From contig NC_043011.1 in assembly GCF_006345805.1 (NCBI RefSeq), positions 25,680,464 through 25,744,463 of the forward strand: a DNA stretch of 64,000 nucleotides, written 5' to 3'. Made by a program: the position numbers and the translations under genes. Every line of letters begins with the position of its first letter. Positions within the stretch are counted from its first letter, which is position 1. The DNA comes from Octopus sinensis. Its lineage: Eukaryota. Below are positions 23,879-35,699 of this stretch, one piece after another. The notes beneath the pieces were generated by a model. The model was not told the DNA's origin. It ran no database searches and saw nothing but the letters and a program-made list of their open reading frames with translations.

Positions 23879-23905
23879 TGGTCAGCTGTATGACAAGGCT
23901 GACCA
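23879..23905 (+). promoter_or_regulatory. GUAUGAC-loop hairpin 1
   Basis: TGGTCAGC-T-[GTATGACAA]-G-GCTGACCA. Confidence 0.65.
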
Positions 23906-25592
23906 CATTTTCTTTTGCAGTGTTCCTTAGAGGGTACATGTTACTGCCAAATATGACAGGCACCAGGCCTAAGCTGGAATGGTTTTAATCACAGGTCTAT
24001 TTAATCGGGCTGACTTAAGATTAAATGATAAAGGTATGTAACCTATCATTGCCAATTACTAAGTCTTTTTAGATCTATTCAGCTTTATTGTATGTACCTC
24101 ATACTATCAACTGCAAAATCTTTCCATGTCTGACTTTATCACACTTACCTCCCATTATCAACTGTAAATCCTGAGAGCATTGCATCAAAAGAATTCCCCT
24201 GTTTGTTGGTTGGCTCAACTGCAGTCACTGACTCCTGAATAAGCTATAGTCATTGATTGAAACAGTGGTTAGTAACAACCCATGAGTCAAAGTTTCTGTC
24301 TCTGTTTTCCCTTCAACTGTCTTGGAAGTTCAGCAAAGTTTTAAACCATCATAACAAAAAAAAAAAAAAAAGCCCACCACCAAATCTCCCTCATGTATGT
24401 CTGTGTATTTATTTTGCTGTAGACCTCACAGAACCACCAATGGCAAGGATATATGTATGAAACAAGATAGTGTAGAATAACAGTCCAATTTGTGATTTAT
24501 TTTCCACAAAAATTACTATAATCTTTTTATGATCTGGTCTGTGCAAATAAGACAATACTTCACTGAAAAGGTCTAACAGGACTGAAATATGTCTGGAGTT
24601 GTTACCATACTTTCCCAAAATGAAACCTAATAAAACCACTAATGAATTTACCTTTGAAATTCTCTTCTCTGATTTCATCAGAAAACACGGTCTTTAATGT
24701 TAATGACTGTTCTTTCATTATAAGTTTAACTTTGAATGGTTGAGTATTTTCTTAAAAACTAATTACATGAAATATATTAGTCTACACTTAACTAAAGTTG
24801 GGTATGATGCAAATGTTATAGCTCAGGACCCTATGTTGTTTGGGAAAAAGTGATATCAAAGTAGCAAAGAGATGTAGTGAATTGATGGCTGCCATCCCTT
24901 TGTAGCTGGTTTCTTTCCTTTGTTTCCATCTCCTCTTAACCCAGACTGCAAGCAAGTCAATCCACCCTTACCCAACTCTCCTCTCTTCTCCACATTCATA
25001 TGATACTTCTGGTCCTTCTTGTTTGTACCTATCTTTTATCATATCCTTCATGTCTATGTAACTCTATTTCTATCTGTCTTCCTCTCTCTCTCTATGTTTC
25101 CCTCTGTATTTCTTTCTCACTCTGTTTTTCTCTCTCTTTCTCCCTGCATCCTTATTGATTACGGTGATATCTAATAAAGGTTCAAGGCCACAAATTTGGG
25201 TGGGAAGTGAGTGTATAGTCAATTAGAGACTGACTCCAGTATTTGACTGATAACTATTTCTAATTCATAAACCTTGATGAAATTTGAACTTTGAATGTAA
25301 AATGATGTAAACTAGTACCTGCAAGACATTTTTATTTTGTGCTTCACTTACTTAACCTTCTCCCTAAAATAAAGATACAACATTGACAACACAACACTCA
25401 CGACAACATCATTATCATCATCATCATCCTCATCATCTTCCTCAAAAACAACAGTAATGATAGCCACAAACATGTTGGTAATGGTTATGATGATTGCTGA
25501 TGGTGGGTATTCATTTCATCGGAAGTAGGAAGATGTGGTTTACAGGGAAGATGCTTTACAAATACTTCCCATTCTATCAATGCCCTGCAAAG

Positions 25593-25660
25593 GTTTACAA
25601 TTTCACAGAGGTCAAGGTTGTTCTACATAAGATTGCGACATTTGACCTTGTGTTGTAAGC
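25593..25660 (+). ncRNA. pre-miRNA-like hairpin (unassigned)
   Basis: gtttacaa..cacagaggtcaaggttgt / gcgacatttgaccttgtgttgtaagc forms a ~25-bp imperfect stem with a ~13-nt loop; no family recognised. Confidence 0.35.
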
Positions 25661-25694
25661 GTTTTTTTTTCCTTACATGTATACACATTCTAGA

Positions 25695-26102
25695 TAATAT
25701 ACAGATGCTCTACAGATAGATGCCAGATGTTGTCCAGATTCCAAATAGTGTACAATGGAATGGTGTAGAGACAGTATATATGTAGGTACCAGGTGGCATA
25801 CAGATACCAAATGGTATATAGATACCTGGTGGTATACAGATGGCAGAGGTGTACATAGGCTAGATTGTTTATACAAGCCAAATGGTGTAAAAATACCAAG
25901 TGACAGATACCAAGTAGGATACAGGCAGATGTTAGACAGTGTTCTGATGGTGTACAGCTGCCAGATGGTATACAAATGTTTGATGCTATAAAAATTTTAG
26001 ATACTGTACAAATGTCTGATATTGTACATATGCTGTACAGACGTTGGTTGCTACTTGGTTACATGATGTTGTACAGACATCAGAAGCTGTACAGATGTCA
26101 GA
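25695..26102. repeat. Degenerate 18-bp minisatellite (consensus ~CAGATGCCAGATGGTGTA)
   Basis: e.g. cagataccaaatggtata, tagatacctggtggtata, cagctgccagatggtata. Confidence 0.75.
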
Positions 26103-26327
26103 GAAGAAATTTTTGGAATATTTCTCGAAATCATGAAGTGAAGTCTTAAAAAAATCAAGCTTCCCCTCTCATAGAGTGGGTGGTGGCATGTAGGATTTCA
26201 AAGGTTTTGATTGTCTTCAGAAATGCCCAATAAAAGGATAAAAAATCACTATATATTACATGCCATAAAAAAAGAAAGGATAAAATAGCAATTTTTAAAA
26301 GAATTCTGTGAAGAAATCTTTAGAGGA

Positions 26328-26365
26328 ATGCAATAAATTCTAGTATGACTTAGAATCTATTGCAT
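26328..26365 (+). promoter_or_regulatory. GUAUGAC-loop hairpin 2
   Basis: ATGCAATA-a-ATTCTA-[GTATGACT]-TAGAAT-c-TATTGCAT. Confidence 0.65.
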
Positions 26366-26922
26366 GAGAAGGATCTAATCTATCTTCACAGTAAGTTGGC
26401 AGAAATATTTCCAGGAATTGATTTGCAGCTCTTGAAAACATTTATCGGAATCACTACATCTTGGAAAGTAAAAGGGGAGATAAAGATGAAAGTGTAACTG
26501 AGAAGAACAACAACCCATGACTTTGAGTTCACAACAGTTTTGCATTGCTGTATGAACTTAAGAGAGCCACACAACTGACATATTTGATCCAGACTATACC
26601 AGGGTACAGAAGAGAAATGGATTTCACATTGGTTTTGGCCATAAACCTTTCAGTTCTTTGATCAAAGGAACTACTTTCTCATTAGGTTATTAAAGGATGT
26701 AGCTGATTATTGCAAATATTTGTTCCTTAATGTAATCTTTGAAGAATATAAGGAATTTATTTTGGTCCTTTGTATTACATTGATACCTTTCAATTATGTT
26801 TGGATTAAAGGAATAATTTTAGTATACAATGCCACAGTATAAAACTATCCACTATATATATATATATATATATATACATTTCAGCAACACCTCAGTTATT
26901 TATATATCTGCAATGTACACAT

Positions 26923-26980
<58 letters not shown>

Positions 26981-27508
26981 TGCTGAGAGCTTGATGAGTC
27001 TAACCCAGACACACATGTGCACATTTATATATATGTGTGTATGTGTGTAAATGTGCATGTGTAGTACACTCATTGAATTATCACTAATAAGTTGGTATTC
27101 CATCATATACACTTGCACCTTTAATGTAATCCTCAGTAATAATTAGTAGTGTGACATAACGTATGACAAAACTGGGCCTTTGAACTACAGGTACAATCCA
27201 TCCAGCAGGTTTCCTCACAGTTTCCATCTACCCTATTCAATTCTCAAGGCTTGGGTCAACTCAAGACTTGGGTCAAATCAAGACATTTGCCCAATGGGAC
27301 GAATTAAGGGATGGCAGGTCTGTGTCAAAACCCAAGTACTTTATGATTGCAAAAGGAAATTCTTAACCATTTGGCTGTGCCCACACCGAAGTGCAAACAA
27401 GTACTCTGGAGTACACAAGAAGCTGAAGCTCACTGAAGTATTTAAGACAGATGCACAACAAGCAAACAATGCTACACACACATACCTACACACATACACA
27501 TGTACACA

Positions 27509-33456: not shown

Positions 33457-33492
33457 TTTATGTGTCAGTTGTATGACAGACTGACATGTAAA
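33457..33492 (+). promoter_or_regulatory. GUAUGAC-loop hairpin 5
   Basis: TTTATGTGTCAGTT-[GTATGACA]-GACTGACATGTAAA: 14 continuous pairs on the + strand, three of them G-U. Confidence 0.7.
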
Positions 33493-33915
33493 TAATGAAA
33501 TATAAAAAAATTTATCCATTAAACAATCTCGCATGTGTGTGTTAGGCCTCTACGTAAAACAGTTATCAGCACAGTGACAACATATTCTATATATTATTTA
33601 ACATTAGCATATATATATATATATATAATATATATATATATATATAGTTGCTGAGTCAACTCGATATTTGCATGCTATTATTATCATAGCTTTATATGTA
33701 ATTTCAAGATCCAATTCAAAAATGAATTTTTTATAATATATATATATATATAGTAATATATATAATAATATATATATATAGTATATAATGTATGTATGTG
33801 CATGTGTGTGTGTATGTGTGCATACATATCCATATGTATATATACATATATATATGACTAAAAATTGTTGCTCTGGTATAAAATGGTTGGTAGAAGTAGT
33901 TGGGATATATATATA

Positions 33916-33977
<62 letters not shown>

Positions 33978-34334
33978 TAATGTCGATAACAATAATGGTA
34001 GTGTTATTCTAAATCTAGCCACAAGGCTATCAGTTTTGAGGGGAAGGGTTAGTCAGTATCTCTGACCCCAGTAACTTGACTGGTGCTTTATTTTATCAAC
34101 CCCAGAGAGGTGAAAGGCTAAGTTGACCATGGCAGGATTTGAACTCAGAATGTAAAGATAGAAAGACGGAACAAATATATGCAAGGCATTAATAATAACA
34201 GATAAAGGAGATAGTGATGATAGTGATGATGATGATGGTGATTATGATGTTGATGATGATGATGATGATGATAATGATGATGATAATTATAATAATAGAA
34301 ATAGCAGAAACAGTAAATAATAATAATAATAATA

Positions 34335-34377
<43 letters not shown>

Positions 34378-35077
34378 TGTAATAATAATAATATCAAATA
34401 TCAATAATAAGAATAGGTGTAGTAATTATGCTAAATATGATAATGGTGATAAATTAATAATAATTATGATAATCTTAATATCCAAGATTTAATGATTTGG
34501 AATTTTGAAAAAAAAAACCTTTTGAAAACATTTCAAAATTCTCTTGTTACTGATTGTGGTGGCAGCAGCAGCAGTAATAGTGAAAGAAATGGTTTTTGTA
34601 AATGTCAAATGAAAGAAATTTAAATTTTGAAAAAAAAAGTCCCTAAAAAATAAAAAAACAAAAAAATGAAACATCTACCATTGCTGTTGCCACCATAACA
34701 ACAACAAACATTGCAACAAAAAAGACATAAAAAGAAAAAAAGCTTTTGGAAGAAAATAAAAAGAAAGTGGAGCCGTAAGATCTCTCTTTCTTTGTTTTTC
34801 TCTTTCTATCTCTATCTATCTCTTTCTCTCTCATTATCTCTATCTCTCTTTTTGTAACCACACACACTTGTTTTCATTTGGTTTGTTCCTGCTGTGGTAA
34901 TTAAAATGAAAAAAAAAATTTGTCAATTTGAGTAAGAGAAAGAAAGAGAGAGAAAGAGAGGGAGAGAAATAGAGAGAGAGGAGGAGAGAGTTAGAAAGAG
35001 AGGAGTGAGAGTGTGAAAGGTAATGAAGAGAGAGAATGAGGTATGCAGATAAGAAATGTTTATATATATATATATAT

Positions 35078-35111
<34 letters not shown>

Positions 35112-35664
35112 ATATATATACACGCACCACCTGGCACACACACACCACATATGTATGTACATATTTATATATATGAATATATATATACATACATATGTAT
35201 ATTTTATGTGTATATAATATATATATAATATTATATATATTATATATATGTATATACAAATTATATATATATACATACATATATATACATATGAGAGAGA
35301 GAGAGAGAGATAGAGAGAGGAGAGAGAGAGAGAGAGAACAGCGAGGGAGAAAGAAAGAGAGAGAATGAGTTGAATGAAAGTTAGTTCTTTCTTTTTTTCT
35401 TTCTATTCAACTCCTACAAGACAGAAGCAAATGTTGGCATCTTGTTTTTTGCTTAAGATTTAGTTGGAAATTTGAGTTTTGAGTTTAGGGCACAAAAATG
35501 ACAAAATAATGGTTGTGAGTAGAATCTTGCTTGCCAAAAAGCTAACATAGAAACCCCCGACCCCCAGGACAAAAAAAAAAATGTCAGCCTTTATTCACTG
35601 CACGACTTCTTGTCGATTTTTCTATGTTTTCTTTAAAATTTCATTAAATTTTTTTTTTTTTTTA

Positions 35665-35699
35665 GAAGACCACTAGATGTATGACTTTCTAGTGTCTTC
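35665..35699 (+). promoter_or_regulatory. GUAUGAC-loop hairpin 6
   Basis: GAAGA-c-CACTAGA-t-[GTATGACT]-t-TCTAGTG-TCTTC. Confidence 0.65.

Follow-up and report, generated by a model that had tools for sequence, protein, structure and literature searches.

Why should six hairpins strung along 12 kb of octopus DNA carry the same seven bases at their tips, on stems that differ in sequence, and in what molecule would they act? The question is raised by a 64,000-nucleotide stretch of the Octopus sinensis genome (hereafter the window; 25680464-25744463 on C15 of the 2.72-Gb genome), a microsatellite-rich region in which the motif GTATGAC caps one stem after another. The GTATGAC hairpin motif is real, probably selected and apparently undescribed. 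As its explanation we propose, with about even confidence, that the six hairpins are docking sites for one RNA-binding protein on a long non-coding RNA (lncRNA) situated between a CCDC177-like and an UNC-93-like gene.

Six hairpins with a common tip

An earlier note on this DNA, made from the letters of the sequence, had listed six stem-loops with a common GTATGAC tip, and all six are present at those places (Table 1). Successive GTATGAC sites lie 2455, 1652, 3010, 2466 and 2208 nt apart. The core stems comprise 9-15 bp and wider folds contribute only interrupted outer stems; hairpin 2 is nested in a longer stem at about 26306-26391. Aligned on their seven invariant bases, the six need no gaps, and five of them have a single register in common, with an 8-nt loop, GUAUGACN, hairpin 1 being offset by an extra bulged base. 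The earlier description of the loops as mostly 8 nt long needs correction for hairpin 1 (9-nt loop or 2-nt bulge) and hairpin 6 (10-nt loop with a U.U mismatch). All 13 stem pairs differ on both sides among the six copies. Paired cells nevertheless amount to 78%, whereas shuffled sequences reach 51% and slid controls 31-42%; the test leans favourably since the structure was derived from the same six sequences.

The tip can close further through a G-C and a U-A pair around a triloop, which is AUG with a 3′ bulge on the plus strand and CAU with a 5′ bulge on the minus strand. On plus this is a minority fold, with a U-A pairing probability of 0.14-0.26 (100-nt flanks). The minus triloop is commoner (P(G-C) 0.34-0.95, P(U-A) 0.27-0.77), and each hairpin read on that strand consists of a lower stem, a 5′ bulge, which is C in four of the six, two to three pairs ending in G-C/U-A, and the CAU triloop.

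The 7-mer itself is not enriched, with 12 occurrences in the window against 11.5 expected. Eight of the 12 are on the plus strand within 23.9-35.7 kb and six of these eight cap stems, while the constrained folds of the window's other six sites reach 0 to -4.1 kcal/mol. Both GTATGAC sites without a stem inside the interval had been taken for relics of short interspersed elements (SINEs); neither has a stem, and the one at 27161 does lie in a repeat, but the one at 28985 has no repeat match over the motif. Some 60 nt 3′ of hairpin 1, a one-mismatch tip, ATATGAC, sits on a short stem (23944-23965) that misses the energy cut given below on the plus strand, and between hairpins 1 and 2 there is a decayed 18-bp minisatellite (25680-26110; Tandem Repeats Finder parts 25787-25841 and 25964-26032).

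Stems were counted at or below -9 kcal/mol with a loop of at most 11 nt, a cut set just below the weakest hairpin after the six had been viewed. It is passed by six of the eight GTATGAC sites inside the interval but by only one of 19 in the rest of the 264 kb searched, and that one is the flank of a GT repeat; one-mismatch sites pass in 18 of 491 cases. In a genome sample of 60 stretches of 10 kb from C1-C20 (600 kb), none of 35 GTATGAC sites passes (Fisher p 4.6e-6; two of 35 at -8); stems of similar frequency at GTATGAC sites elsewhere in the genome, which the earlier note had named as fatal to its case, are not seen in this sample. In a look-elsewhere test, which 2.8% of the window positions outside low-complexity sequence pass (2,289 of 81,545), GTATGAC ranks first among all the 7-mers of the window's two strands, with six hairpins in 12.5 kb; the best unrelated 7-mers have four each, at positions read as SINE copies. 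The comparison with other 7-mers came out at six against four, and the hairpin pattern on GTATGAC is real.

The hairpins also lack the many copies and homologous flanks of a dispersed repeat, whether SINE or miniature inverted-repeat transposable element (MITE). No repeat match overlies any of them, except that hairpins 4 and 5 match each other. The 18-mer common to these two occurs twice in the 2.72-Gb genome, both times here, the core of hairpin 2 occurs once, and the islands around hairpins 1 and 2 are single-copy; the identical search finds a nearby MITE (43.3 kb) 80 times. A covariance model yields no seventh copy in 264 kb, the next match scoring 19.3 bits against 27.6-39.2 for the six. 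With a single-copy context where searched, the earlier claim of an invariant tip on varying stems, a selected RNA structure and not a transposon, is borne out as to its non-repeat nature, and selection is probable. A degenerate 20-mer search returned one lone look-alike, near the chance rate by estimate: a GTATGAC hairpin in the same 8-nt register on C19 (L030:1501-1520; C19:53224052). It scores 22.7 bits, and the surrounding 60 kb, where the next match has 20.0, holds no cluster.

Table 1. Features of the hairpin array and its putative host unit (window coordinates; energies from constrained folds, kcal/mol)
Feature	Position	Strand	Energy	Remarks
Hairpin 1	23879..23905	.	-14.4	GTATGAC at 23888; 2-nt bulge or 9-nt loop
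Hairpin 2	26328..26365	.	-13.2	GTATGAC at 26343; on minus, unbroken 15-bp stem with one G-U
Hairpin 3	27982..28015	.	-12.1	GTATGAC at 27995
Hairpin 4	30996..31021	.	-9.9	GTATGAC at 31005; weakest of the six
Hairpin 5	33457..33492	.	-15.7	GTATGAC at 33471
Hairpin 6	35665..35699	.	-14.1	GTATGAC at 35679; 10-nt loop with U.U mismatch
Control GTATGAC without stem	27161..27167	+		Within dispersed repeat (11 repeat matches over motif)
Control GTATGAC without stem	28985..28991	+		0 repeat matches over motif
A-to-G difference, run X11 only	26358	-		UAG context, hairpin 2 stem; sole unshared difference among those listed
Candidate polyadenylation signal AATAAA	19469..19474	-		Left edge of unique islands; putative function
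Putative host, long non-coding transcription unit	19450..52100	-		Ends and strand putative

A candidate host transcript and its strand

The proposed RNA would be transcribed from the minus strand, starting near 52 kb and ending near 19.5 kb. With the tip fixed while the stems are replaced, the stem would be a pedestal that presents the tip and drifts by compensatory change, and the tip would be read base by base, held constant by base-specific contacts, most simply with a protein. The six sites over 12 kb would act additively, and the RNA might titrate or gather its protein as NORAD does, or have its own decay set by that protein. For such a transcript the minus strand is the more probable one, with a confidence somewhat better than even.

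The host unit is placed where it is because of a CpG boundary, an asymmetry of AATAAA, a low repeat content and an unspliced contig. CpG depletion in invertebrates is a mark of methylated gene bodies. Here a CpG-depleted domain, with the array inside it, stretches between about -82 kb and 52 kb. At 52-54 kb the CpG observed/expected ratio then climbs sharply, from ~0.2 to 0.6-1.1, beside a GA repeat; a minus-strand unit may start at this boundary, or a plus-strand unit may end there. Between 19.4 and 52.1 kb, AATAAA normalised to hexamers of the same composition stands at 0.64 on minus versus 0.96 on plus, and the minus value mirrors the 0.60 of the sense strand in the CCDC177 body. Repeat cover per 2 kb is 0-0.12 at 20-32 kb versus 0.20-0.67 at 1-16 kb. 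Two stable hairpins occupy 19437-19540, where the unique islands begin on the left, and the first of them takes the candidate polyadenylation signal into its stem. The earlier note had read G-U pairs as favouring the plus strand; they do not settle the strand, and the overall lean is to minus, on which the folding z-scores are stronger in all six hairpins.

Sequencing runs bear on transcription in part. The whole assembly of run X11, a run guessed to be RNA by software, amounts to 29.2 Mb (~1% of the genome) and includes one 3317-nt contig over 23600-26840, at depth 19, that crosses hairpins 1 and 2 without a joint and is hence unspliced; that so small an assembly carries this segment whole would fit a transcript. 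Fourteen runs guessed to be RNA, from six studies, contain 0.86-0.90 of the search words. On-off expression by tissue or sex, suggested by four runs of one study (0.00-0.04 of words), was not used as evidence, and neither was a T>C excess in run X20 (18 vs 8 C>T), since the DNA-sized run X18 leans alike (6 vs 4). Identity with the octopus lncRNAs Zmast/Zfest was rejected: both are Z-linked, Amnionless, the host of Zfest, marks the Z chromosome (10.1101/2024.12.09.627507), and Amnionless is on C20 but the window on C15.

The X11 contig carries one A-to-G difference on the minus strand within hairpin 2. The minus stem survives this change (-16.5 to -16.1) whereas the plus stem becomes weaker (-13.6 to -11.9), and the change may represent editing or a wobble-tolerated allele. 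The fullest form of the proposal, a ~33-kb minus-strand lncRNA whose six bulged CAU-triloop hairpins form a sponge or scaffold, possibly a non-canonical Roquin element, with an A-to-I edited stem, is offered tentatively and is as a whole rather doubtful.

Several observations weigh against a selected array on a minus-strand RNA. None of the 24 runs found is on record as RNA, and the contig comparison covers hairpins 1 and 2 only. The A-to-G difference is a single site, and should plus be the right strand it disrupts a base pair. The AATAAA asymmetry has p = 0.05-0.15, and the minus ratio of the 52-81 kb tract, 0.75, is similar. Over 23601-25093, run X20, which comes from another organism, is about 94% identical, and hairpin 1 (23867-23918) has no listed difference there, at p = 0.06-0.19 (17 of 22 contig differences listed); hairpin 2 has no cover in X17 and X20 and partial cover in X18, and no compensatory stem change between species was seen, within a cross-run cover limited to these two hairpins. 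No second hairpin cluster was found by the model search of 264 kb or in the 60 kb at the C19 look-alike. Finally, folding energy is lower on plus in five of the six hairpins, and the CpG-depleted domain passes into the CCDC177 body without a break.

Neighbouring genes and alternative explanations

The last two of these points favour the plus strand, and with it the alternative that survives best, although it is on balance unlikely: the plus-strand CCDC177-like mRNA would extend in the 3′ direction, at great length or by splicing, to include the array, whose AUG triloop would be read by a repressive protein of TRIM71/LIN-41 type. Depletion runs unbroken from the gene body to 52 kb, and the plus triloop has the U-A closing pair and the purine at loop position III of the LIN-41 rule (PMC5908797). 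Named Octopus proteins match the flanks of the window at 95-100% identity for most exons, and the CCDC177-like gene (+; multi-exon, DUF4659, P0001) is thereby located from L004:9684 to L012:6821, or about -80316 to -3179 in window coordinates. Its last coding exon ends ~3.2 kb before the window, and no coding exon was found in the window, which leaves the plus-strand terminal exon that the earlier note had proposed as host without support. The extension would have to reach the array from a stop codon 27-39 kb upstream through repeat-rich DNA and past 43 plus-strand AATAAA in 19.4-52.1 kb, a number that is not depleted; the low U-A pairing probability of the plus triloop stands against it too, and as LIN-41 response elements (LREs) tolerate about half of the loop 3-mers, the invariance of the tip would go unexplained. 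A CpG-rich promoter-like tract lies near this gene, at about -92 to -86 kb.

On the other side, the UNC-93-like gene (-) has exons at 144.9, 100.2 and 83.4 kb (L021:742-879, L016:6049-6171, L014:9128-9418), the nearest of them ~47 kb from the array. An extension of this gene, or the untranslated region (UTR) or intron of a coding gene with missing or tiny exons, could in principle host the hairpins, and we judge this improbable. The assembly does have a gap (L014:7412-7511, at about 81,412 in window coordinates), the last UNC-93-like exon is absent from the assembly (G000) and the named model P0009 is truncated there; public accessions of the two flanking genes are not consecutive, with two numbers between them in one species and eight in another. 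The array is nevertheless set apart from the UNC-93 body because it is CpG-depleted, whereas neither that body nor the 52-81 kb tract is. In the window no coding exon was found by a strict exon finder, which did recover seven CCDC177-like and two UNC-93-like exons, and no exon chain by a relaxed one; none of 200 open reading frames (at least 38 aa) matches Pfam, the scan having covered 200 of 244 candidates and the other 44 all lying beyond the window. These screens are insensitive to small exons, as just one of eight true CCDC177 exons was significant in Pfam. At 11515-11811 and 17032-17274 the translations suggest what we take to be mariner-like transposase fragments, which the Pfam scan did not pick up. 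ARAGORN finds no tRNA in the window. Autoregulation by an RNA-binding or RNA-modifying host, as the earlier note envisaged, is without support because neither flanking gene encodes such a protein.

That the hairpins persist neutrally, as the last recognisable part of an ancient tandem duplication or mobile element, is quite improbable. Identity between hairpins 4 and 5 is 89% over 36 nt and the spacing is roughly even, and duplication may indeed be the origin of the hairpins, yet not the cause of their persistence: the flanks have no similarity to one another, and neutral decay would not retain seven of seven tip bases while exchanging stems for new complementary ones. Two inverted repeats lie further along the window. 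One, at 43345-43448, is a MITE-like element present in many copies (80 matches among 40 scored candidates), a 50-bp inverted repeat that is almost perfect (-82.5 kcal/mol); the other, at 48021-48300, is older, 78% self-complementary over 259 nt, either a MITE relic or a long hairpin, and without a copy in roughly 870 kb of background loci. The 25 inverted-repeat pairs listed of 6930 are AT microsatellites only.

Slimmer still are the prospects of an action as DNA, in which the hairpins would be extruded, or would be inverted transcription-factor half-sites containing TGAC. Transcription is putative, the stem pairs are mostly Watson-Crick and both strands fold about equally well; a factor reading the duplex, however, needs fixed arms, and here the arms differ, while a one-sided fixed bulge and tolerated G-U pairs would fit single-stranded RNA. 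Chance co-occurrence, for which the expected 7-mer count and the post hoc energy cut might speak, is exceedingly improbable and already largely refuted by the stem counts inside and outside the interval and in the genome sample, the top look-elsewhere rank and the pairing above shuffles.

Relation to known RNA elements

The proposed protein-docking array on a minus-strand lncRNA can be set against described elements. The earlier note had not recognised it as an iron-responsive element (IRE), selenocysteine insertion sequence (SECIS), constitutive decay element (CDE) or histone stem-loop, and the Rfam check it asked for agrees: there are no matches at gathering score in the 64 kb, SECIS, histone stem-loop, microRNA (miRNA) and small nucleolar RNA models included. 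At E<=10, the 150 matches seen of 252 are all below gathering score and mostly to microsatellite-driven miRNA models. The apical loop of an IRE is CAGUGN. A CAGUGA loop appears in passages of PMC12896564, which do not show the context of GUAUGAC. The octopus tips differ from the IRE loop, and the lone CAGTG[ACT] is in the flank of hairpin 3, not in a tip. A pre-miRNA stem has about 25-30 bp, more than the core stems here, so the array is no pre-miRNA cluster. The minus tip, U-CAU-A, may resemble the anticodon loop of tRNA-Met, and the plus tip may resemble UGAC motifs of FXR1 type. In the titles and opening abstract lines of the papers listed on the motif, octopus lncRNA stem-loops and CCDC177, the element is not described; an exact 22-mer search of metagenome contigs gave no matches and is uninformative.

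Two families of readers can be named. According to PMC5908797, binding of TRIM71 to LREs requires a U-A closing pair and a purine at position III and scales with the pairing probability of the triloop. The earlier suggestion that the tips follow this rule stands as far as U-AUG-A on plus, in several copies, is concerned; the probability of that U-A pair is low, and the rule leaves the invariance of seven bases unexplained, LRE loops not being invariant; on minus the rule fails, as position III is U. For Roquin, parts of PMC6294493 describe CDEs with YRN loops, of which YAU triloops are best, on an unbroken, sequence-free stem of 6-8 bp. On the minus strand all six tips present CAU, with a Y-R closing pair and in several copies, and a ROQ_II (Roquin) gene is present in the genome; the stem, in contrast, breaks after 2-3 bp into a bulge or internal loop and has an invariant G-C/U-A, which counts against a CDE and against this part of the proposal. 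A ROQ-domain protein is our best named guess for the reader, although an unlikely one, and a reader outside both families is likelier than either, because neither Roquin nor LIN-41 requires seven fixed bases.

The array as a whole may work like multi-site arrays of the MAT2A, NORAD or CsrB type, while belonging to none of the systems tested. NORAD, a decoy lncRNA for Pumilio and SAM68, carries repeated protein-binding modules that include short hairpins, and additive binding has been proposed; its units, however, are homologous, ~300 nt long and contain Pumilio response elements (PREs), as against the unrelated flanks and fixed hairpin tip seen here (passages of PMC5828396). A PRE-like 8-mer lies near only one of the six octopus hairpins. 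In CsrB/RsmZ and roX, repeated hairpins set a fixed short motif on many stems for one bound protein, and they differ from the octopus array in motif, kingdom or function. A fixed loop on free stems is a repeated mark of real protein-RNA circuits, CsrB among them.

The analogy that the earlier note drew with MAT2A is sound for the multi-hairpin architecture but not for the loop. The MAT2A 3′ UTR bears six hairpins (hp1-6) bound by METTL16, with a common loop motif, UACAGARAA, on one RNA, and additive, redundant multi-site action has been shown for hp2-6 (PMC10578476). That motif is in none of the six octopus hairpins on either strand, and the octopus array is spread over 12 kb, whereas that of MAT2A lies in one UTR, starting 8 nt after the stop. 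The octopus hairpins have neither a MAT2A gene nor a stop codon close by. Nor is the octopus array placed in the 3′ UTR of an S-adenosylmethionine (SAM) synthetase, its flanking genes being CCDC177-like and UNC-93-like, although a gene hidden in the gap is possible. MAT2A-METTL16 remains an earlier case in which a fixed-loop array marked a real protein-RNA circuit.

Cephalopod gene control leans heavily on RNA, through editing and microRNAs. The shortness of the element, and the natural controls offered by the two stemless GTATGAC sites between the hairpins, mean that a pull-down could directly reveal which protein reads it. Should the host prove to be a stand-alone lncRNA, the octopus would have one that carries a defined functional module; and if the proposal holds, the minus-strand array would play in a cephalopod the part of NORAD or CsrB, through a recognition code not yet described.

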